A stretch of DNA of 8,160 nt from a virus (lineage: Duplodnaviria; Heunggongvirae; Uroviricota; Caudoviricetes): the IMG/VR virus record IMGVR_UViG_2693429621_000002, positions 1 to 8,160 of that record; one strand, 5' to 3'. Position numbers and translations under genes: made by a program. This document shows positions 1 through 8,160 of the stretch, piece after piece; within the stretch, counting starts at the first letter, position 1; every line of letters starts with the position of its first letter. Under the pieces are notes generated by a model, which saw only the letters and a program-made list of their open reading frames with translations, searched no databases and was not told the DNA's origin.

Positions 1-5
1 AACAA

Positions 6-236
6 ATGGTAGTGTCCGCTATTGCCAGTACACCTCATCCATCACCGAAAAAAATTGGCTTTTACACCATTGGCGATAAAAGCATTTACCTGTATGACCT
101 ACGCCGCATGGATGAAATCATGGAGGCTCTTGATAATCGTTCGTCGATGGATTGGTGTGTTGCTGTTCATGATATGAATGCAGGGTTTGATGAAAAGATT
201 TTGTTCCCCTCATCAGTTGAAAGCACTGCGGGTTAA
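6..236 (+). CDS. hypothetical prophage protein (76 aa from first ATG; may extend 5' beyond the window)
   Basis: Open frame from ATG at 6 to TAA at 234-236; the codon before the ATG in this frame is not a stop, so the true start may lie upstream of the window. No recognisable motif. Confidence 0.4.
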   Translation: MVVSAIASTPHPSPKKIGFYTIGDKSIYLYDLRRMDEIMEALDNRSSMDWCVAVHDMNAGFDEKILFPSSVESTAG

Positions 237-246
237 GGAGTAACAC

Positions 247-414
247 ATGACCACTATTACCAAAGAACGTATTGAATTGTTCATTAAAAACCCGCTTGAA
301 AACGGGCTTACCCGTGGTGAACAAATGGAACTGGCACGGATTGCGCTGGCATCGCTGGAAGCAGAGCCGGTTGTGTTCTGGTTTGAAAAATATCAAGAAG
401 GGGCTACGGCATGA
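247..414 (+). CDS. hypothetical small protein (55 aa), N-terminal paralog of the next gene
   Basis: Strong SD AAGGAG 7 nt upstream of ATG at 247; stop TGA overlaps the next start (ATGA at 411-414). Below the 60-aa cutoff of the ORF track. Shares MTT(I/F)T(K/R)E... and ...(A/V)SL(E/A)AEP motifs with the 411-755 product. Confidence 0.55.
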
Positions 415-755
415 CGACTTTTACCAGAGAGCAGTTAATAGCTCACGCAGAGGAGACTATTGAAGCACAGAGACTGTGCATACCGGGCACAATCGACCAT
501 GACATCATCCGCACATATAAGATGGATATTGCTGTTCTGGAAATCGCACTGGTATCGCTGGCAGCAGAGCCAGCCGGTAAATTGCATGAATACAAACCAG
601 TGGGATATCAGCGTCTGGTCGATGAGTTAACCATGCTGGTAAAGCAGTTAACCTGGCAACTGAGGAAAGCGAAGCCAGACTGCAAATTACCGGATAAGGC
701 GATGAGTTATCTGGAGCGGAACGGACTGATAAGCGTGGAGGATATTTTACGATGA
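411..755 (+). CDS. hypothetical protein (114 aa), paralog of the 247-414 product
   Basis: ORF in track; start overlaps upstream stop and its own stop overlaps the next start (ATGA at 752-755), indicating translational coupling. Internal similarity to the preceding small protein. Confidence 0.6.
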
Positions 756-835
756 CCTGGCCTGAAGCATTAACAACGGTAGGAATTGCGATGGCGGTGG
801 CGCTGGTGGTGTATTCGATTTGCCGCTGGGGATAA
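752..835 (+). CDS. putative 27-aa hydrophobic membrane micro-protein ([27 protein letters not shown])
   Basis: ATG overlaps the stop of the upstream gene (ATGA); single predicted transmembrane helix; ends TAA 833-835. Too short for the ORF track. Could be a chance ORF. Confidence 0.35.
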
Positions 836-841
836 AAACGG

Positions 842-870
842 TTTGCGGGAAAAGGAGAGTTAAGTAGAAT
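842..870 (+). promoter_or_regulatory. candidate sigma70 promoter for hok mRNA (-35 TTTGCG, 17-bp spacer, -10 TAGAAT)
   Basis: Hexamers read directly; the predicted transcript start (about 877) precedes a GCTTGAGGCT motif that I recall from the 5' end of plasmid R1 hok mRNA. Confidence 0.3.
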
Positions 871-1046
871 TGCAGCGGGTGCTTGAGGCTATCTGTCTCA
901 GGCATGAACACCAAAAGGCAGATAGAGAAAAGCCCCAGTTAACATTACGCGTCCGGCAAGACGCTTAACATTAATCTGAGGCTCAATCTATGAACGGCAA
1001 ATCTAGGTTAGCCTCTTACGTGCCGAAAGGCAAGGAGAAGCAGGCT

Positions 1047-1202
1047 ATGAAGCAGCAAAAGGCGATGTTAATCGCCCTGATCGTCATCTGTTTAACCGTC
1101 ATAGTGACGGCACTGGTAACGAGGAAAGACCTCTGCGAGGTACGAATTCGAACCGGCCAGACGGAGGTCGCTGTCTTCACAGCTTACGAACCTGAGGAGT
1201 AA
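1047..1202 (+). CDS. hokD: Hok/Gef-family type I toxin, HokD/RelF-like (51 aa)
   Basis: Translation MKQQKAMLIALIVICLTVIVTALVTRKDLCEVRIRTGQTEVAVFTAYEPEE matches my recollection of E. coli HokD (RelF). The ORF track shows an in-frame 70-aa extension from ATG 990, which may be a mok-like upstream frame or an ORF-finder artefact. Confidence 0.85.
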   Translation: MKQQKAMLIALIVICLTVIVTALVTRKDLCEVRIRTGQTEVAVFTAYEPEE

Positions 1203-1271
1203 GAGACCAGGCGGGGGAGAAATCCCTCGCCACCTCTGATGGGTCAGGCATCCTCAATGCACCCACACTTA

Positions 1272-1300
1272 ACCCGCTTCGGCGGGTTTTTGTTTTTATT
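1272..1300 (+). terminator. rho-independent terminator ending the hok transcript
   Basis: Hairpin ACCCGC-TTCG-GCGGGT followed by TTTTTGTTTTTATTTT. Confidence 0.6.
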
Positions 1301-1310
1301 TTCAACGCGT

Positions 1311-1340
1311 TTGAAGTTTTAGATGGTGCCGGAATAGAAT
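1311..1340 (+). promoter_or_regulatory. candidate sigma70 promoter (-35 TTGAAG, 18-bp spacer, -10 TAGAAT)
   Basis: Hexamers read directly, about 85 nt upstream of the 1423 start codon. Confidence 0.3.
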
Positions 1341-1422
1341 CAAAAATACTTAAGTAGCGCGCAGGGAGAAGAGGGATGGACCCCGAACAGGGGAGTGCTA
1401 TTTATCTGGAAGGATTCTGTTG

Positions 1423-1704
1423 ATGAAAATCGAAGAATTACGTGAAATTTTTAGTGAAGATGGCCTCTATACTGTGCGCGTTGAGAATGGCGCTATTGTC
1501 AGCCACTGCCTTCCAGACTACACAATTCTGATAATTCAGCCGTCTTTGCCAGCAGGCACGGGCGGCGCTCTCACGCATTTAAATCTGATTGGTACCAGCA
1601 TCCCCCATGCACTGAAGAACAGGCCGAATGGCTCATTCAGTGTTACCGCAGGCGCGGATGCGAGGTTAAAAAAGCCCTTAGCCTCGACTACCGTCACTGG
1701 ATAA
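1423..1704 (+). CDS. hypothetical prophage protein (93 aa) in the position occupied by rem in Qin-like prophages
   Basis: ATG at 1423 preceded by GGAAGGA; the ORF track starts 3 nt earlier at TTG. Lies between hok and the DUF968 gene as in Qin. Identity with Rem not verified. Confidence 0.5.
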   Translation: MKIEELREIFSEDGLYTVRVENGAIVSHCLPDYTILIIQPSLPAGTGGALTHLNLIGTSIPHALKNRPNGSFSVTAGADARLKKPLASTTVTG

Positions 1705-1779
1705 TCTCCGTCAGGCTCCCTTACTCCGAACGGCCAACGCGTCCGTCCCGCACATTCCAGCAACGGATCTGGAGGTAAT

Positions 1780-2838
1780 GTGCGGGTATTACTTCGACCT
1801 GTTCTGGTACCGGAACTCGGTCTGGTTATCGTTAAGCCAGGCCGTGAATCAATGTCAGCATTCCATAACGGCAGAATACTGGTGGAGCCGGAACCAAAAA
1901 GCATGCGTAATCTGCCGTCCGGGGTCGTTCCTGCCGCTCGCCAGCCGCTGGTGGAAGACAAAACATTGCTGCCGTTTTTCAGTAACGCACGGGTGATTCG
2001 TGCTGCTGGTGGTGCTGGTGCATTGTCTGACTGGCTGTTGCGCCATATTAAATCCTGCCAGTGGCCACACGGCGATTATCATCACAGCGAAACCGTCATT
2101 CACCGTTATGGTACCGGCGCAATGGTGTTGTGCTGGCACTGCGACAACCAGCTGCGTGACCAGACATCCGAATCACTCGAGCAACTTGCTCATCAAAACC
2201 TGTCAGCATGGATGATTGACGTCATCGGTCACGCAATAAGCGGTACGCAGGAGCGTGAATTATCTCTGGCTGAATTATCCTGGTGGGCGGTCCGCAATCA
2301 GGTGGCGGACGCGCTACCGGAAGCGGTATTACGTCGTTCGCTGGGGTTGCGTGCGGAAAAAATTCGCTCTGTGTACAGTGAAAGCGACATCATACCGGGA
2401 GAGCAGACAGCCACCAGCATACTGAAGCAGCGCACAAAAAATATTGCGTTACTGCCTCACGTCCACCAGCAACAGAACCCACCACAGGAAAAGACGGTGG
2501 TCAGCATTGCCGTTGATCCGGAGTCACCGGCTCAGTATCTCCAGCGCCAGAAATCACAACGGGAAGAGATGCCTGTATACACGCGCTGGGTAAAAACGCA
2601 GAAATGCATGACGTGTGGCAATCAGGCAGATGATCCGCATCACATCATTGGTCATGGACTGGGAGGGATGGGAACAAAGGCTGATGATTTGTTTGTTATT
2701 CCGTTATGCCGTAAATGCCGTAACGAACTACATGCCGGAGTAAAAGATTTTGAAGAGAAACACGGCAGTCAGCTGTTGTTGCTGATTCGTTTTTTAATGC
2801 ACGCGAGAAATTCGGGTGTTCTGAAGTGGAAAGCATAA
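1780..2838 (+). CDS. DUF968 / YdfU-like prophage protein with C-terminal Cys/His cluster (352 aa)
   Basis: Long ORF from GTG 1780 (SD GGAGG at 1771-1775); the true start may be internal. C-terminus has CMTCGN...DPHHIIGH...PLCRKCRNELH, an HNH/zinc-finger-like arrangement. Stop TAA abuts the rusA start. Confidence 0.65.
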   Translation: MRVLLRPVLVPELGLVIVKPGRESMSAFHNGRILVEPEPKSMRNLPSGVVPAARQPLVEDKTLLPFFSNARVIRAAGGAGALSDWLLRHIKSCQWPHGDYHHSETVIHRYGTGAMVLCWHCDNQLRDQTSESLEQLAHQNLSAWMIDVIGHAISGTQERELSLAELSWWAVRNQVADALPEAVLRRSLGLRAEKIRSVYSESDIIPGEQTATSILKQRTKNIALLPHVHQQQNPPQEKTVVSIAVDPESPAQYLQRQKSQREEMPVYTRWVKTQKCMTCGNQADDPHHIIGHGLGGMGTKADDLFVIPLCRKCRNELHAGVKDFEEKHGSQLLLLIRFLMHARNSGVLKWKA

Positions 2839-3219
2839 ATGACCGAGCGCATAGAATTTGTTTTACCTTACCCGCCGACGGTGAACACTTACTGGCGTCG
2901 TCGTGGCAGCACATATTTTGTATCAAAAGCCGGGGAGCGTTATCGCCGGGCAGTGGCGCTTATTGTTCGCCAGCAGCGGCTGAAATTAAGCCTGTCCGGA
3001 AGGTTGGCAATAAAAATTATTGCAGAACCACCGGATAAGCGCCGCCGTGACCTGGACAATATTCTGAAAGCGCCGCTGGATGCGCTGACGCATGCGGGGT
3101 TGCTAATGGACGATGAGCAGTTTGATGAAATCAATATCGTTCGTGGTCAGCCAGTATCTGGTGGACGTCTGGGGGTGAAGATTTACCCCATAATGCATGA
3201 AGAGCAGGTCAAAAAATGA
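2839..3219 (+). CDS. rusA: RusA-family Holliday junction resolvase (126 aa)
   Basis: Conserved RusA blocks LPYPPTVNTYWRRRG, DKRRRDLDNILKAPLDALTHAGL and GGRLGVKI resemble E. coli RusA; SD GGAAAG upstream; stop overlaps the next start (ATGA 3216-3219). Confidence 0.85.
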   Translation: MTERIEFVLPYPPTVNTYWRRRGSTYFVSKAGERYRRAVALIVRQQRLKLSLSGRLAIKIIAEPPDKRRRDLDNILKAPLDALTHAGLLMDDEQFDEINIVRGQPVSGGRLGVKIYPIMHEEQVKK

Positions 3220-4043
3220 AACTGGAAGATTTACCGAAATACTACTCCCCAAAATCCCCCGGCCTGACTGATGCATCGGCCTCAACGTCGAAAGATGCGC
3301 TGAGTATCACTGATGTGATGGCCGCGCAGGGCATGACACAGAATCGGGCTGAGATGGGGGTTTCTGCGTTCCTTGGGAAAATGGGCATTAGTATGAATGA
3401 CAGAGAGCGGGCAACAGAATTGCTGACAGAATATGCACTCAGTCGGTGTGATCGCGTGGCGGCGTTAAGAAAACTCCCGGCAGAAATAAAACCGGCAGTG
3501 ATGCGTATTATGGCTTCGTATGCGTTTGAAGATTATGCCCGTAGCGCGGCGAGCAAAAAACAGTGCCCCTGCTGTCACGGAAAAAAATTTATTGAAAGCG
3601 AGGTTTTTACAAACAAGATCCAGTATCCGGATGGTAAGCCGCCGGTATGGGCAAAGTGTACGAAAGGTGTGTATCCGTCTTACTGGGAAGAATGGAAAAA
3701 AGTCAGGGAGGTGGTAAAAGTTGCCTGTCCGGAGTGTGGCGGAAAGGGTGAGGTTTCCACCGCCTGTAAGGATTGCCGTGGGCGTGGTGTCGCCATTCAT
3801 CGTGAAGAGTCGGTAAAACGTGGTATGCCTGTTATCAGAGACTGCCAGCGTTGTGGTGGTCGTGGCTATGAAAGACTACCATCAACGGAGGCATTTAATG
3901 CTATATGCGAGGTGACAAACCAGATAACACGCGCGTCATGGGAAAAAACAGTTAAGAAATTCTATGATGCGCTGGTGACTCGGTTTGATATTGAAGAAGC
4001 ATGGGCTGAGCGGCAGTTAAAAAAGGTAACTAGGTNAGGTTGA
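3216..4043 (+). CDS. Q-type late antiterminator, QuuQ-like, with zinc-finger motifs (about 274 aa)
   Basis: Repeated CxxC motifs (CPCCHGKKF, CPECGGKG...CKDCRGRG, CQRCGGRG); lies immediately upstream of a promoter plus terminator pair typical of PR'/tR'. The 3' end contains an N at 4036; the duplicate copy shows the true C-terminus ...KKVTR. Confidence 0.7.
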   Translation: MKLEDLPKYYSPKSPGLTDASASTSKDALSITDVMAAQGMTQNRAEMGVSAFLGKMGISMNDRERATELLTEYALSRCDRVAALRKLPAEIKPAVMRIMASYAFEDYARSAASKKQCPCCHGKKFIESEVFTNKIQYPDGKPPVWAKCTKGVYPSYWEEWKKVREVVKVACPECGGKGEVSTACKDCRGRGVAIHREESVKRGMPVIRDCQRCGGRGYERLPSTEAFNAICEVTNQITRASWEKTVKKFYDALVTRFDIEEAWAERQLKKVTRXG

Positions 4044-4128
4044 TTTTTCCGGAATCTGTGGTAAATTCGTCATAACTATGGGCGTTTTATGCCTGACGTT
4101 AGAAGAGTTTCTACAACCCGCCGCCGAG
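3629..4128. repeat. copy 1 of duplicated segment (Q 3' end, PR'-like promoter, start of tR' hairpin) ending at the scaffold gap
   Basis: Matches 4150-4651 except for three substitutions (3962 C/T, 3980 T/C, 4076 T/G) and a small indel around the N at 4036. A copy of the promoter sits at about 4040-4067. Confidence 0.9.
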
Positions 4129-4149
4129 NNNNNNNNNNNNNNNNNNNNN
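4129..4149. other. scaffold gap (21 N)
   Basis: Run of N characters read directly. Confidence 0.97.
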
Positions 4150-4558
4150 GGATGGTAAGCCGCCGGTATGGGCAAAGTGTACGAAAGGTGTGTATCCGTC
4201 TTACTGGGAAGAATGGAAAAAAGTCAGGGAGGTGGTAAAAGTTGCCTGTCCGGAGTGTGGCGGAAAGGGTGAGGTTTCCACCGCCTGTAAGGATTGCCGT
4301 GGGCGTGGTGTCGCCATTCATCGTGAAGAGTCGGTAAAACGTGGTATGCCTGTTATCAGAGACTGCCAGCGTTGTGGTGGTCGTGGCTATGAAAGACTAC
4401 CATCAACGGAGGCATTTAATGCTATATGCGAGGTGACAAACCAGATAACACGCGCGTCATGGGAAAAAACAGTTAAGAAATTTTATGATGCGCTGGTGAC
4501 CCGGTTTGATATTGAAGAAGCATGGGCTGAGCGGCAGTTAAAAAAGGTAACTAGGTAA
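4150..4558 (+). pseudogene. duplicated 3' portion of the Q antiterminator ORF (partial, begins at gap edge); probably contig overlap rather than a separate gene
   Basis: In-frame continuation of Q codons ending ...QLKKVTR-TAA at 4556-4558. The ORF track reports only the part from the internal ATG at 4190. Confidence 0.6.
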
Positions 4559-4563
4559 CAAGG

Positions 4564-4591
4564 TTGATTTTTCCGGAATCTGTGGTAAATT
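4564..4591 (+). promoter_or_regulatory. PR'-like late promoter (-35 TTGATT, 16-bp spacer, -10 TAAATT), presumed Q-utilisation region
   Basis: Hexamers read directly, immediately 3' of the Q gene, with a terminator about 60 nt downstream; this is the lambdoid PR'/qut/tR' arrangement. Confidence 0.55.
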
Positions 4592-4638
4592 CGTCATAAC
4601 GATGGGCGTTTTATGCCTGACGTTAGAAGAGTTTCTAC

Positions 4639-4663
4639 AACCCGCCGCCGAGCGGGTTTTTTA
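4639..4663 (+). terminator. tR'-like rho-independent terminator
   Basis: Hairpin AACCCGC-CGCCGA-GCGGGTT followed by TTTTTTAT. Confidence 0.65.
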
Positions 4664-4782
4664 TGACTGAAATCGCGTCAGTACAGTAAACGCGCTGGTG
4701 GCGGTGAATACCTGTCTTTCAGCTTGCTGGCTTTTTCGACAAGAGTTATTGGTGTGTCACGTTAACCGGAAAAGGAAAAGAC

Positions 4783-4980
4783 ATGCTAAAACAGCAGGAT
4801 ATGACAGAAACCGCCAGAGTGGTGTTTAATGAATTAAGCGTTACCGAACCGGCGACAGTCGGGGAGATAGCGCAGAATACTTACCTTTCACGCGAACGCT
4901 GCCAGTTAATACTGACCCAGCTGGTTATGGCGGGTCTGGCAGACTATCAGTTCGGTTGTTACAGACGCCTTCCGCAGTGA
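4783..4980 (+). CDS. small putative winged-helix/HTH DNA-binding protein (65 aa)
   Basis: SD AAAGGAAAAG 6 nt before ATG; the segment PATVGEIAQNTYLSRERCQLILTQLVMAGLA looks like a helix-turn-helix. An alternative start is ATG 4801. Confidence 0.5.
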   Translation: MLKQQDMTETARVVFNELSVTEPATVGEIAQNTYLSRERCQLILTQLVMAGLADYQFGCYRRLPQ

Positions 4981-4994
4981 AGGCTTTTTTATTT
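4967..4994 (+). terminator. rho-independent terminator overlapping the stop codon of the 4783-4980 ORF
   Basis: Hairpin GCCTTC-CGCAGT-GAAGGC followed by TTTTTTATTT. Confidence 0.5.
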
Positions 4995-5007
4995 GTGGTA
5001 AATGGGC

Positions 5008-5038
5008 GGCTGGTGGGTGTTAGGGGCACCCACCAGCC
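5008..5038 (+). promoter_or_regulatory. perfect 12-bp inverted repeat hairpin (GGCTGGTGGGTG-ttagggg-CACCCACCAGCC) upstream of the methyltransferase gene
   Basis: Read directly; not followed by a T-run. A near-palindrome CTGCTTTGCGCAAAAGCAG lies at 5080-5098, about 35 nt before the methyltransferase start. Confidence 0.4.
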
Positions 5039-5130
5039 ATCTGCTCATGCGTTGGGTTCACAAGCAAACCTCAGGCCCACTGCTTTGCGCAAAAGCAGAA
5101 TGAGCCTATCAGAGACAGGCTTAATGATCC

Positions 5131-6189
5131 ATGCTTAATACTGTAAAAATATCCAGTTGTGAGTTAATCAACGCCGACTGCCTGGAATTTATCCGGTCGT
5201 TACCCGAAAATTCTGTTGACCTGATAGTCACGGACCCGCCGTACTTTAAAGTGAAGCCTGAGGGCTGGGATAACCAGTGGAAGGGCGACGATGATTACCT
5301 GAAGTGGCTGGACCAGTGTCTGGCGCAGTTCTGGCGGGTGCTGAAACCTGCCGGAAGTCTTTACCTGTTCTGTGGTCATCGCCTGGCATCTGATATCGAA
5401 ATCATGATGCGTGAACGCTTCAGTGTGCTGAACCATATTATCTGGGCGAAGCCGTCCGGACGCTGGAACGGATGCAACAAGGAAAGCCTGCGGGCGTATT
5501 TCCCCGCCACAGAGCGCATTCTGTTCGCGGAACATTATCAGGGGCCGTATCGTCCGAAAGATGCCGGGTATGCGGCGAAGGGCAGTGCACTGAAACAGCA
5601 TGTGATGGCCCCGCTGATTTCTTACTTTCGTGATGCGCGAGCTGCCCTGGGGATAACGGCAAAACAGATTGCAGATGCCACAGGAAAGAAAAACATGGTG
5701 TCGCACTGGTTCAGTGCCGGTCAGTGGCAGTTGCCGAATGAAAGCGATTATCTGAAATTACAGGCGCTGTTTGCCCGGGTGGCAGAAGAGAAGCATCGGC
5801 GTGGTGAACTGGAAAAGCTCCACCACCAGCTGGTGGATACGTATACCTCACTGAACCGGCAGTATGCGGAGCTGCTGAGTGAATATAAACATCTGCGGCG
5901 GTATTTTGGCGTGACGGTGCAGGTGCCGTATACCGATGTGTGGACGCATAAACCGGTGCAGTTCTATCCCGGGAAACATCCGTGCGAAAAACCGGCAGAA
6001 ATGCTGCAGCAGATAATCAGCGCTAGCAGTCGTCCGGGTGACCTGATTGCAGATTTTTTCATGGGGTTGGGTTCGACAGTGAAAGCGGCACTGGCGCTCG
6101 GGCGTCGTGCAATTGGCGTTGAGCTGGAGACTGAACGTTTTGAGCAGACGGTTCGGGAAGTACAGGATTTAGTCAGCCAGAACGGATGA
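5131..6189 (+). CDS. beta-class DNA amino-methyltransferase, probably N6-adenine, orphan (352 aa)
   Basis: N-terminal motif IV LIVTDPPYF and C-terminal motif I DFFMGLGST. This order (IV before I) is the beta-class arrangement, and DPPY favours N6-adenine. No restriction endonuclease ORF is adjacent. Confidence 0.85.
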   Translation: MLNTVKISSCELINADCLEFIRSLPENSVDLIVTDPPYFKVKPEGWDNQWKGDDDYLKWLDQCLAQFWRVLKPAGSLYLFCGHRLASDIEIMMRERFSVLNHIIWAKPSGRWNGCNKESLRAYFPATERILFAEHYQGPYRPKDAGYAAKGSALKQHVMAPLISYFRDARAALGITAKQIADATGKKNMVSHWFSAGQWQLPNESDYLKLQALFARVAEEKHRRGELEKLHHQLVDTYTSLNRQYAELLSEYKHLRRYFGVTVQVPYTDVWTHKPVQFYPGKHPCEKPAEMLQQIISASSRPGDLIADFFMGLGSTVKAALALGRRAIGVELETERFEQTVREVQDLVSQNG

Positions 6190-6229
6190 TATTGAAGAAT
6201 TAATTACGCGTCGTTATTATGCGGCTCCC

Positions 6230-6305
6230 GGCCCTTTAGCTCAGTGGTGAGAGCGAGCGACTCATAATCGCCAGGTCGCTGGTTCAAATCCAGCAAGGGC
6301 CACCA
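6230..6305 (+). tRNA. ileZ: tRNA-Ile2 (anticodon CAU, lysidine type; ileX/ileZ-like), 76 nt with encoded CCA
   Basis: Manual cloverleaf: acceptor GGCCCTT/AAGGGCC, D-arm GCTC-AGTGGTGA-GAGC, anticodon loop CTCATAA, T-loop TTCAAAT. Closely resembles my recollection of E. coli ileX. Confidence 0.85.
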
Positions 6306-6312
6306 TCACATA

Positions 6313-6389
6313 CCGCCATTAGCTCATCAGGAAAGAGCGCCAGCCTTCGAAGCTGGCTGCGCGGGGTTCAAGTCCCCGATGGCGGTCCA
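6313..6389 (+). tRNA. argN: tRNA-Arg (anticodon UCG), 77 nt with encoded CCA
   Basis: Acceptor CCGCCAT/ATGGCGG, anticodon stem CCAGC/GCTGG, loop CTTCGAA, T-arm CGGGG-TTCAAGT-CCCCG, discriminator T, CCA. Confidence 0.8.
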
Positions 6390-6402
6390 TTATCTGCATC
6401 AT

Positions 6403-6479
6403 GCGTTGTTAGCTCAGCCGGACAGAGCAATTGCCTTCTAAGCAATCGGTCACTGGTTCGAATCCAGTACAGCGCGCCA
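6403..6479 (+). tRNA. argO: tRNA-Arg (anticodon UCU), 77 nt with encoded CCA
   Basis: Acceptor GCGTTGT/ACAGCGC (one G-U pair), anticodon stem ATTGC/GCAAT, loop CTTCTAA, T-loop TTCGAAT, discriminator G, CCA. Confidence 0.85.
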
Positions 6480-6616
6480 TATTCATTCTTCCAGATTCCT
6501 TCCGGCAGAGCCTTATACTGAAATATACCTGGCTCAGGATATTGTTGAAAATATTTTATGTTTGTCAAAAATAAAAGTTCTGTTAAGTATTGATTGAGTG
6601 TTTGTTATACGGTCTA

Positions 6617-6943
6617 ATGGTTTTTTCAGCATTAAATATTTATCATTCATATGGTGTGGGTAGAGTGAATATTGATGAGGCGTCGGGGTGTTTCATCCTT
6701 AGGCAGCGTATTGATATAGTCAATGCAGCACGAGCAAAGGCCTTCAGCCGTTTGACAGTTTTGTTCTGTACTCCTGATCGTCTTTCGGGAAGAGACGTTA
6801 TTATTCTGAATAGTGATGCTATACAGAGGGTTTGCGATGAGTTCATGGTTGCTAATTCAGAATTATTTGCTCTTGTTCAGGAGTACAACAGAATAGCCAG
6901 GACCTGTGGTATGGATGAACTTCGGATTACTCATCTGGGGTAG
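6617..6943 (+). CDS. hypothetical cargo protein (108 aa from first ATG; ORF track extends to TTG at 6590)
   Basis: Open frame of more than 100 codons in an AT-rich region; no clear SD. Arg codons are 6/11 AGA/AGG plus one CGA, and Ile includes 3 ATA, matching the adjacent tRNAs. No recognisable domain. Confidence 0.4.
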   Translation: MVFSALNIYHSYGVGRVNIDEASGCFILRQRIDIVNAARAKAFSRLTVLFCTPDRLSGRDVIILNSDAIQRVCDEFMVANSELFALVQEYNRIARTCGMDELRITHLG

Positions 6944-7023
6944 ATACATATCTGGATTATCACCTGTTACGGTAAAAAGTGATTGCTTACTGTTTTTGTG
7001 AATGGCATTGCAGCAGCCGGATA

Positions 7024-7110
7024 ATGTCAGTGCTGGCTGACGGTGTGCTGGTGGCGGGTGTGGTGGTTGTTGCTTTCCCGTTGCTGAAAAAGAAAACGCC
7101 AGACTGTTAG
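7024..7110 (+). CDS. possible 28-aa hydrophobic micro-protein (MSVLADGVLVAGVVVVAFPLLKKKTPDC)
   Basis: ATG with weak SD (GGA); one hydrophobic helix followed by KKK. Speculative; may be non-coding. Confidence 0.2.
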   Translation: MSVLADGVLVAGVVVVAFPLLKKKTPDC

Positions 7111-7335
7111 CCGGGTATCAGTTAGCGGGAGAAATTTTTAAATACTTCACAATTCAGGCGGTTGACTGTTGTCTGGTTTGCGGGGAGTTTGTTAAAAGAA
7201 ACTGGCATGGTGAATCCCCCTGTGCGGAGGGGCAATCAGCGAGTAGGTATATGGGATAATCGCGGATTCAGGTGCTGGTACTGAATTCACCGGGAGGCAC
7301 CCGGCACCATGCAATGGCACATAGCGCCACTCTCC

Positions 7336-7370
7336 AGCCCCTCTCCGGAGGGGCTGTTTATATTGATTTT
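7336..7370 (+). terminator. strong rho-independent terminator, + orientation
   Basis: Perfect 8-bp stem AGCCCCTC-tccg-GAGGGGCT followed by GTTTATATTGATTTT. Confidence 0.6.
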
Positions 7371-7387
7371 GTCAGATGTGAGTAAAC

Positions 7388-7421
7388 TCCTTATGGACTT
7401 TGTTGTTTTAGTCCATAAGGA
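7388..7421. promoter_or_regulatory. perfect 12-bp inverted repeat (TCCTTATGGACT-ttgttgtttt-AGTCCATAAGGA) overlapping the stop codon of the minus-strand ORF
   Basis: Read directly; on the minus-strand mRNA the last 10 codons and the stop lie inside this hairpin. Confidence 0.4.
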
Positions 7422-7726
7422 CATATTTGCAGAGTGCAACGGTTATTAAAGCATTCATTCAATACGTTATCTGTATTTGTAGGGCATTCCTGGCTATTTT
7501 TGATTGAATTCCAGAATGTTTTATTGAATGGTACTACGTTGTAAATGGTTACAGGTAGCACTTTGTTATTGAGCATGATGCCTGTGTGAGTCAGTGTAAA
7601 TATACTTTCAGGAGGTAAGAAAGCATCCGATTGATACCAGATTATTAATTTTATTTTACTCCATATGACTGAAAAAGATATTCCGCATGATGGCTGGATA
7701 ACTGTATCAATCACAATCCACTTCAT
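7391..7726 (-). CDS. hypothetical cargo protein (111 aa), antisense to the phage late operon, Cys-containing C-terminus
   Basis: ATG at 7726 with SD AAGGA 7 nt upstream; 6 of 13 Ile codons are the rare ATA (read by the adjacent tRNA-Ile2). C-terminal [25 protein letters not shown] has four Cys. No recognisable domain. Confidence 0.6.
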
Positions 7727-7986
7727 TTAGTTTCCTTGTTTATGCCTTGCTGGTGATGTTCTGAAAAGTATAAATGATATTTTTGAATGTAAACCATAGA
7801 GCAGAATTATTTTTCTGATGTTGTTTATTGTTTATTTAAATGCAGGGTGGTTTATATCTCGTCTTGTAGTTTATCCATGCATATCTGCTTGATAATCAGG
7901 TTTTTATTTAAGGTATGGTTTTGTGTTTTTTCTGTATTACATGTCAGGTATTTTAAAGAATTATTTTTCAGATGGTGGAAAGAACC

Positions 7987-8160
7987 ATGGCATTTAAACA
8001 CTATGATGTTGTCAGGGCGGCGCCGCCGTCAGATCTTGCGGAAAAGCTGACACATAAACTGAAAGAGGGCTGGCAGCCGTTTGGTAGTCCGGTGGCCATA
8101 ACCCCTTATACCCTGAGGTGTACTGGCAATAGCGGACACTACCATTTGTTCTTTTTTTAA
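7987..8160 (+). CDS. small prophage protein (57 aa from ATG 7987; 62 aa from ATG 7972), tentatively DUF1737-like
   Basis: SD-like GGTGGAAAG before ATG 7987; stop TAA at 8158-8160 directly after a T7 homopolymer at the window edge. Similarity to the N-terminal domain of Stx-phage NanS-p-type esterases is from memory and unverified. Confidence 0.45.
   Translation: MAFKHYDVVRAAPPSDLAEKLTHKLKEGWQPFGSPVAITPYTLRCTGNSGHYHLFFF

Follow-up and report, generated by a model that had tools for sequence, protein, structure and literature searches.

The stretch of DNA considered here, all 8,160 nucleotides (nt) of which are referred to as the window, is part of a virus of the class Caudoviricetes (IMG/VR record IMGVR_UViG_2693429621_000002, positions 1 to 8,160) and represents the late-regulatory region of a lambdoid prophage of Shigella sonnei. 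Its start holds hok/sok, DUF968 and RusA, after which come the gene for the antiterminator Q, the late promoter PR′, the terminator tR′ and a cassette (Table 1) in which a gene for a 65-residue winged-helix protein is followed by a 131-nt leader rich in palindromes and then by a gene for a 352-residue DNA methyltransferase. The initial annotation, made from the sequence, saw in this layout a likeness to controller-protein systems, with the small protein acting on the palindromes. The present analysis makes it probable that the palindromes are instead helices of a folded RNA leader standing in front of a non-specific adenine methyltransferase, the close relatives of which are already known.

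Table 1. Positions of the features discussed, counted from the first nucleotide of the window.
Feature	Position	Strand	Basis or description
Q antiterminator gene, phage-82 type	3216-4558	+	PF03589, E = 1.8e-53
Late promoter PR′	4564-4603	+	-35 TTGATT 4564-4569; -10 TAAATT 4586-4591; AACGAT 4598-4603
tR′ intrinsic terminator	4639-4664	+	Terminator scan: 7-bp stem, then TTTTTAT
Conserved non-coding block, CTTGCTG...AGAGTTAT.TGT.TGTCA	4723-4759	+	Common to loci with differing Q types
65-residue winged-helix protein	4783-4980	+	phrog_331, E = 1.4e-37; often partners the methyltransferase
HP1, intrinsic terminator	4967-4994	+	Terminator scan: stem 4967-4984, then TTTTTTATTT
HP2, 12-bp inverted repeat plus outer stem ATGGGC/GCTCAT	5002-5048	+	Fold; outer-stem pairing in homologues
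HP3, near-palindrome CTGCTTTGCGCAAAAGCAG (5080-5098) within a GGC.CA/TG.GCC stem	5074-5106	+	Fold and homologue comparison
HP4, enclosing stem, 5056-5066 with 5118-5129	5056-5129	+	Homologue comparison
M.EcoGI/M.EcoGII-family beta-class N6-adenine DNA/RNA methyltransferase, 352 residues	5131-6189	+	PF01555
tRNA cluster, Met/Ile2(CAT), Arg(TCG), Arg(TCT)	6230-6479	+	ARAGORN, Rfam, Shiga toxin (Stx) phage annotations
Chi sites	802, 1947, 2005, 4694, 5009, 5829, 7047	+	
Chi sites	2411, 2463, 5030, 5823	-	

The methyltransferase

The product of the larger gene matches PF01555 (N6_N4_Mtase) with E = 7.9e-42, the match spanning residues 29-340 with an insert of about 90 residues. The DPPY of motif IV lies near the N-terminus (residues 35-38, encoded at 5233-5244) and the FxGxG of motif I near the C-terminus (residues 310-314, encoded at 6058-6072), which is the motif order of the beta class, as the initial annotation had read it. 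The protein is identical at 336 of 348 residues (97%) to WP_000935536.1 from Escherichia coli O104:H4 C227-11, where the counterpart sits in a non-Stx lambdoid prophage, and it is about 93% identical to M.EcoGII, whose sequence was machine-read, with a few reading errors, from the PDF of Table S1 of the SUPREM paper (PMC11551740). M.EcoGII and M.EcoGI resemble it in length (349-352 residues), in identity (about 93-97%) and in the DPPY ... FxGxG order, and in C227-11 they too are found downstream of Q in a lambdoid prophage, with the same small open reading frame (ORF) and leader upstream and the same set of tRNAs after them. The window copy is unlike them in carrying the substitutions S313L and S197G, in a C-terminus that is three residues longer, and in lying in a Shigella sonnei prophage ridden with insertion sequences (IS). 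Judged by its sequence, the window enzyme is an orthologue of the known non-specific methyltransferases M.EcoGI and M.EcoGII and an orphan member of the beta class.

M.EcoGII methylates adenine in any context and does so in double-stranded DNA, single-stranded DNA and RNA (Murray et al., 2018, PMC5778455). In the lysogen M.EcoGII is silent, as is M.EcoGI, a paralogue 95% identical to it; constitutive expression is harmful, and M.EcoGII has been proposed to be turned on at induction and to shield phage DNA from restriction (PMC5778455); the earlier suggestion that methylation in this prophage protects progeny DNA after induction matches that published hypothesis. Because M.EcoGI and M.EcoGII methylate adenine regardless of context, no methylation motif is to be expected for the window enzyme, and the lack of a phage-specific motif, offered at first as a refutation, would not refute its function. 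The insert, at roughly residues 170-260, had been taken for a target-recognition domain. Its position agrees roughly with the four-helix-bundle nucleic-acid-binding domain that published AlphaFold modelling places at residues 160-237 (PMC11551740), limits that correspond to about 5608-5841 in the window, but a sequence target is not expected for it.

As the initial annotation had stated, the enzyme has no restriction partner: no restriction gene is found in the window or in the homologous loci of 13-14 kb, including that of C227-11 (14 kb). A scan with one genome per species gave methyltransferase homologues of 61-97% identity at 80 loci, in Escherichia, Salmonella, Citrobacter, Klebsiella, Enterobacter, Mixta, Erwinia, Photorhabdus, Xenorhabdus, Providencia and Morganella. 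At one Salmonella locus, just upstream of Q and before the same cassette, there is an additional gene (L025:940-1584) that resembles a DNA methyltransferase, has a DPPW motif and is unrelated to the first.

The small gene and the leader

The small ORF, which had been described as helix-turn-helix-like, belongs to a family of unassigned function, and its winged-helix match to TrmB (PF01978) is weak (E = 0.0026, 18 bits, below the 25.6-bit cutoff). No model in NCBIfam or PADLOC matches the protein and no Xre/HTH_3 match was obtained, and the name "TrmB family transcriptional regulator" is an automatic one that is probably misleading. The best AlphaFold model (predicted local distance difference test score, pLDDT, of 90; the other four models were poorer) has the H1-H2-H3-wing layout of a minimal winged helix, and Foldseek searches against the PDB gave generic winged-helix matches (best E = 1.6e-3, none below 1e-3) that include the SelB-SECIS and Zalpha winged helices, which bind RNA hairpins or unusual nucleic acids. 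Foldseek matches to the N-terminal domains of small-molecule O-methyltransferases were judged not to be meaningful. Where it can be calculated, the ratio of nonsynonymous to synonymous substitution rates (dN/dS) of the ORF is 0-0.15, synonymous sites being otherwise saturated, and hence this is a real gene under purifying selection. In 65 of 81 informative loci the methyltransferase is preceded, at a distance of 82-154 nt, by a homologue of this ORF (39-100% identity), and the two genes adjoin in 101 viral contigs. The winged-helix protein is thus a frequent partner of the methyltransferase and, as described below, a dispensable one.

Four hairpins, designated HP1 to HP4, can be drawn between the end of the small ORF and the start of the methyltransferase. 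HP1 is the terminator that the initial annotation had assigned to the small gene. It contains, in its loop and 3′ arm, the stop codon of the ORF (TGA, 4978-4980); the same is true in nearly all loci in spite of differing stem sequences, and two-sided changes have occurred in five of the six stem pairs. With the stop codon in this position a terminating ribosome could hinder the hairpin, thereby coupling translation to termination. HP2 is built on the perfect inverted repeat reported earlier, GGCTGGTGGGTG/CACCCACCAGCC (5008-5019 and 5027-5038), the 12-nt arms of which are 100% complementary around a 7-nt loop; by our own arithmetic (about 581 positions × 41 spacings / 4^12) some 0.001 such repeats are expected by chance in this stretch. 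With its outer stem, which is pairable in all 97 unique enterobacterial-type leaders through changes of the wobble type, HP2 amounts to about 18-20 bp with a small internal loop, and in Providencia and Xenorhabdus a hairpin is kept at the same position in an unrelated sequence devoid of Chi. The near-palindrome, likewise present where it had been described, forms a 7-bp stem in the minimum-free-energy fold and lies at the heart of HP3, which is conserved across the 97 leaders. HP4 encloses HP3 and pairs the 13 nt just before the methyltransferase ATG, a region in which no Shine-Dalgarno sequence is visible. In HP4 91.7% of cells are paired, four pairs have changed on both sides, and pairing is kept in 87-94 of the 97 leaders by GC to AT exchanges and the reverse. 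An ORF of 60 residues that overlaps the leader (4956-5138) was considered as a leader peptide or translationally coupled ORF and rejected, since neither its stops nor its frame is conserved and indels of 1-2 nt occur in the alignment.

Comparison of homologues supports an RNA structure. Among 33 loci the leader has a mean identity to the window of 84%, versus 73% for the small ORF and 75% for the methyltransferase coding sequence, and it outconserves both flanking genes even though their synonymous divergence (dS) is saturated. When the HP1-HP4 structure is imposed on the 33 sequences, 83.5% of cells are paired compared with 80.3% after shuffling, and 16 pairs have changed on both sides compared with 9.4; none of 500 shuffles attained the observed values, and slid controls gave 30-49%. 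On the sense strand the homologues contain 149 G·U cells versus 30 A·C cells, and it is by this asymmetry that the structure is assigned to the sense-strand RNA. A search of the whole window against Rfam at E ≤ 1 returned no family for the leader, the only hit, to P26 on the antisense strand, scoring 24 bits where the gathering threshold is 36 (E = 0.12), and a literature search found no paper on either the leader or the small ORF.

The leader also goes its own way with respect to the small gene. Among 116 assessable viral contigs, 111 have the leader motif followed by a methyltransferase at the expected distance, and of the 16 loci without a small ORF 14 retain the leader unchanged, HP4 included, directly after a terminator, which in loci L012 and L022 follows Q itself. 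Conversely, in four viral contigs (L107, L145, L171 and L190) the small ORF, HP1 and HP2 are kept while a different gene, for a protein of about 246 residues, takes the place of the methyltransferase and of the remaining leader, the recombination breakpoint lying right after HP2. From these 14 loci and four contigs it follows that the small gene and the methyltransferase are separable and that the palindromes travel mainly with the methyltransferase.

The late transcript and a proposed route of control

Directly upstream of the cassette the window has the layout of a Q-dependent late operon, namely Q, PR′ with its -10-like pause element, and an intrinsic terminator, which bears out the position in the late transcript that the initial annotation had proposed. 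In lambda the AACGAT element is the site of a sigma70-dependent pause at which Q engages, and tR′ terminates the short PR′ transcript when Q is absent. By analogy with lambda biology, the AACGAT of the window would be the PR′ pause element. Lambda PR′, read from NC_001416, is TTGACT-17-TAAATT-6-AACGATGGG, and the architecture of the window promoter matches it, TAAATT-N6-AACGATGGG being identical in the two and the window -35 being TTGATT. The promoter scan found no passing site between the small ORF and the methyltransferase or upstream of the small ORF; the conserved block at 4723-4759 was not called by it and has no dyad, its agreement with the sigma70 consensus being 3/6 plus 3/6 by eye. 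Q, PR′ and tR′, the last of which is kept upstream of the cassette in homologous loci, support the assignment of the cassette to the Q-dependent late transcript, in which Q would be required for reading through the terminators.

The next genes on that transcript are the tRNAs (the CAT tRNA is Met according to ARAGORN and Ile according to RefSeq), and the identical set precedes stx in Stx phages. No stx follows the tRNAs of the window, where a 117-residue ORF of phrog_2873, with unassigned function, is found instead (6590-6943).

The cassette recurs in this niche. In 8 of 10 distant loci sampled, the gene just upstream of it is a Q of PF03589, PF06323 or PF06530/DUF1133, and the presence of three unrelated Q families upstream of the cassette in distant genera indicates that it is a late-operon moron, that is, a mobile module that lands at the start of the late operon; the site downstream of PR′ is a recognised moron insertion site (PMC4104026). 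The segment is 94% identical in Stx2a and Stx2d phages and 86% identical in phiP27, and many Stx2 phages have it between Q and the toxin genes. Out of 5426 complete E. coli genomes, 3392 contain a match to window positions 4560-6600 (cassette plus tRNA cluster), the match covering at least 80% of that query in 1748, with at most 15 places per genome. The late operon of lambda shares with the window the identical -10 TAAATT and AACGAT, the terminator after them and the moron site occupied here by the cassette, and Stx2 phages share the cassette at that site. The window is unlike lambda and the Stx morons in its phage-82-type Q (PF03589), its second terminator, the structured leader before the first long gene and the absence of stx after the tRNAs.

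The Q gene itself is interrupted in this record. The true Q is made up of 3216-3628 joined to 4150-4558 (273 residues), and 3629-4149 is a draft-assembly duplication plus a run of N: 3629-4128 repeats 4150-4652 (about 500 bp) around 21 N at 4129-4149, with an additional N at 4036. The duplicated sequence spans the 3′ half of Q, PR′ and half of tR′, and the copies differ at one base (AACTAT versus AACGAT). Since complete Shigella sonnei genomes hold one intact 273-residue Q, the duplication is an artefact of scaffold joining, and it falls outside the region of the small ORF and the methyltransferase.

Taken together, the locus is best explained as a moron of two genes placed at the head of a lambdoid late operon, an explanation to which, with all of its parts, we assign a probability of about 0.7. 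In the lysogen, PR′ transcripts would stop at tR′ and those that escape would stop at HP1, leaving the methyltransferase silent. At induction Q would load on RNA polymerase at PR′, and the modified polymerase would pass both terminators, giving a read-through transcript with the 65-residue gene, the 131-nt structured leader, the methyltransferase and the tRNAs. In this transcript the palindromes would be helices of a folded sense-strand leader rather than binding sites for the small protein. HP4 would pair the start region, which has no Shine-Dalgarno sequence, and HP2 to HP4 together most likely hold the translation of a toxic enzyme low or delay it, while HP2 may also serve as an RNase III-type processing site or as a module-boundary element. 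The enzyme would then methylate adenine on replicating phage DNA with no sequence preference before packaging, and once packaged the genomes would be resistant, in the next host, to many adenine-sensitive restriction systems. Of these elements, the present data show what the enzyme is, where it sits in the genome, that the leader is conserved and covaries and that the small gene is real; the non-specific activity, the silence in the lysogen and the toxicity come from the literature, and Q-dependent read-through at this locus, translational occlusion and the anti-restriction benefit are inferred.

Several points weigh against this explanation, apart from the reading errors in the M.EcoGII sequence already mentioned. 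The sense strand of the leader folds with z = -4.3 and the antisense strand equally well with z = -4.4, so that the thermodynamic test does not discriminate between them. RNAalifold, run on the raw MAFFT alignment, recovered the structure only in part, and it gave a long-range alternative, TGGGC/GCCCA, with one double change, which the data do not separate from the local stems. Conservation of the leader could be partly at the level of DNA: most Enterobacteriaceae loci preserve a Chi site in the left arm of HP2, and HP3 is fully dyad-symmetric in many loci. The S313L substitution, at an otherwise invariant position of motif I, may have left this particular copy inactive. Finally, the Q-dependence, the function of the leader and the translational occlusion are inferred.

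Competing explanations and significance

The first alternative concerns this genome only, namely that the cassette is a decaying remnant in which the prophage is defective, the allele inactive and the elements functionless in their host. IS elements flank and interrupt the prophage, and the exact methyltransferase protein occurs in thousands of assemblies named Shigella sonnei or Shigella, the allele being fixed there. S313L (6067-6069) replaces the middle residue of the motif I GxG, giving FMGLG in place of FMGSG, where all 84 homologues compared have Ser, and S197G (5719-5721) falls in the predicted nucleic-acid-binding domain at a position that is Ser in 83 of the 84; each is unique in that set. 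Inactivating changes in the catalytic motifs had been named at the outset as a possible refutation and S313L is a change of that kind by position, but it could not be sustained as an inactivating lesion, since CcrM, an active enzyme of the beta class, has Val at the equivalent position. Moreover, the two ORFs and the leader are intact, as are Q, PR′ and tR′, and the allele is stably kept across many genomes with no frameshifts. This copy may be weakened and perhaps never induced, but its being a functionless remnant is a minority possibility, which we consider unlikely.

A second alternative takes phage Mu, the closest working analogy, as its model. In the com-mom operon of Mu, the start of a toxic adenine-modifying enzyme is masked by a leader stem until a small protein, encoded upstream, opens it. 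Applied to the window, the 65-residue protein would bind the RNA of HP2 or HP3 and open the start-masking stem, so that translation of the toxic enzyme would need the small protein first. The layouts are parallel, in that both systems have a late, toxic adenine-modifying enzyme, a small ORF upstream of it (62 residues in Mu and 65 in the window) and a leader stem that masks the start, here a paired start region with no Shine-Dalgarno sequence; in addition, the two genes of the cassette strongly co-occur, and SelB-SECIS and Zalpha are among the fold matches of the small protein. These fold matches are generic, however, none having an E-value below 1e-3; Com, which binds RNA and is of the zinc-finger type, has no kinship to the window protein in sequence or fold, com overlaps mom, and Mom, unlike the window enzyme, is not an S-adenosylmethionine-dependent methyltransferase. 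At 14 loci that lack the small gene the leader, HP4 included, is unchanged, which speaks against an obligatory dependence on the small protein. The likeness to Mu is one of logic only, the small protein of the window not being obligatory in cis, and a com-mom-like switch is improbable. A related and equally speculative idea by analogy, to which we give little credence, is that the leader represents an undescribed cis-regulatory RNA family dedicated to the non-specific adenine methyltransferases of enterobacterial prophages, with phrog_331 as the RNA-binding partner that unmasks the start, a translational gate like that of Mu but made of unrelated parts; in a variant of it, the winged helix would read or shield DNA containing N6-methyladenine.

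The inverted repeat might also be primarily a DNA element, in which an opposed pair of Chi sites shields replicating or packaged phage DNA from RecBCD and the hairpin is a by-product. Both arms of HP2 carry Chi (GCTGGTGG) in this copy, one on each strand, and the window contains 11 such octamers, the expectation from shuffled sequences being 0.33. The density in homologous prophage loci of Enterobacteriaceae is 0.7-2.0 Chi per kb, with a bias to the plus strand, on which the late transcript runs. Most Enterobacteriaceae leaders retain the Chi of the left arm, the right arm being variable; Chi-rich lambdoid phages have been described before (PMC3784561, PMC12315714). Yet the minus-strand Chi is lost in most homologues with the pairing preserved through G·U, the outer stem ATGGGC/GCTCAT is free of Chi and still pairable in 97 of 97 leaders, and in Providencia and Xenorhabdus, whose loci have almost no Chi, the hairpin at the same place is Chi-less, for example GACTGTAAAGGTG/CACCCTTACAGTC. 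Chi may contribute to keeping the left-arm sequence of HP2 conserved, but it cannot explain the hairpin, which survives in a Chi-less form, and a primary role as a DNA element is given a low probability, lower than that of the Mu-like switch. Elsewhere in the cassette, a perfect 14-bp palindrome, CCACCAGCTGGTGG, lies within the methyltransferase coding sequence at 5823-5836 (residues HHQLV) and is made up of two Chi sites that overlap in opposite orientation about a CAGCTG core.

The controller proteins invoked by the initial annotation have Xre-type helix-turn-helix folds; their binding sites, the C-boxes, lie upstream of the controller gene itself, and their main target is a restriction gene. 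The proposal that the 65-residue protein is such a factor, timing transcription of the methyltransferase from the inverted repeat and the near-palindrome as operators, has in its favour a small gene with a DNA-binding type of winged-helix fold beside the methyltransferase (in the 65 loci and 101 contigs noted above), dyads nearby as with C.PvuII, C.AhdI and C.Esp1396I, and an HP3 that is dyad-symmetric up to its centre (GCTTTAGCGCTAAAGC) in many loci, but it is highly improbable, given a winged helix that is not of the Xre/HTH_3 type, the lack of a restriction gene, palindromes that lie downstream of the small gene rather than upstream (where the block at 4723-4759 has no dyad), the lack of a promoter-like site between the two genes, the palindromes that stay intact at 14 of the 16 loci lacking the small gene, the four viral contigs with the small gene, HP1 and HP2 but no methyltransferase, and one-sided substitutions that keep sense-strand G·U pairs (149 versus 30), as expected of evolving RNA helices and not of a protein operator.

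Beyond the cassette, the window contains two further features with Rfam matches. A hok/sok type I toxin-antitoxin pair occupies 877-1202 (sok, 112 bits at 877-1052; Hok ORF, 990-1202), and the small RNA STnc100 is found at full length on the plus strand at 7176-7365 (132 bits). The latter adjoins a 111-residue ORF on the minus strand (7391-7726), the equivalent of which is annotated as the anti-adapter IraM in homologous loci, in a convergent small-RNA region of the moron site.

The enzyme family is thus already characterised, is in use as a laboratory reagent (EcoGII), is very common in E. coli and here occupies a known genomic niche, while the structured leader and the winged-helix partner appear to be undescribed. 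For annotation, "Site-specific DNA-methyltransferase" is probably a misleading name, and a methylation motif is not worth seeking for this gene. How a toxic non-specific methylase is kept silent and then switched on has not been described so far, and the double terminator, the conserved leader that pairs with the start region and the conserved winged-helix partner offer handles on that control. In Stx phages this transcript also carries stx, and elements of the leader region could for that reason affect the toxin mRNA as well.

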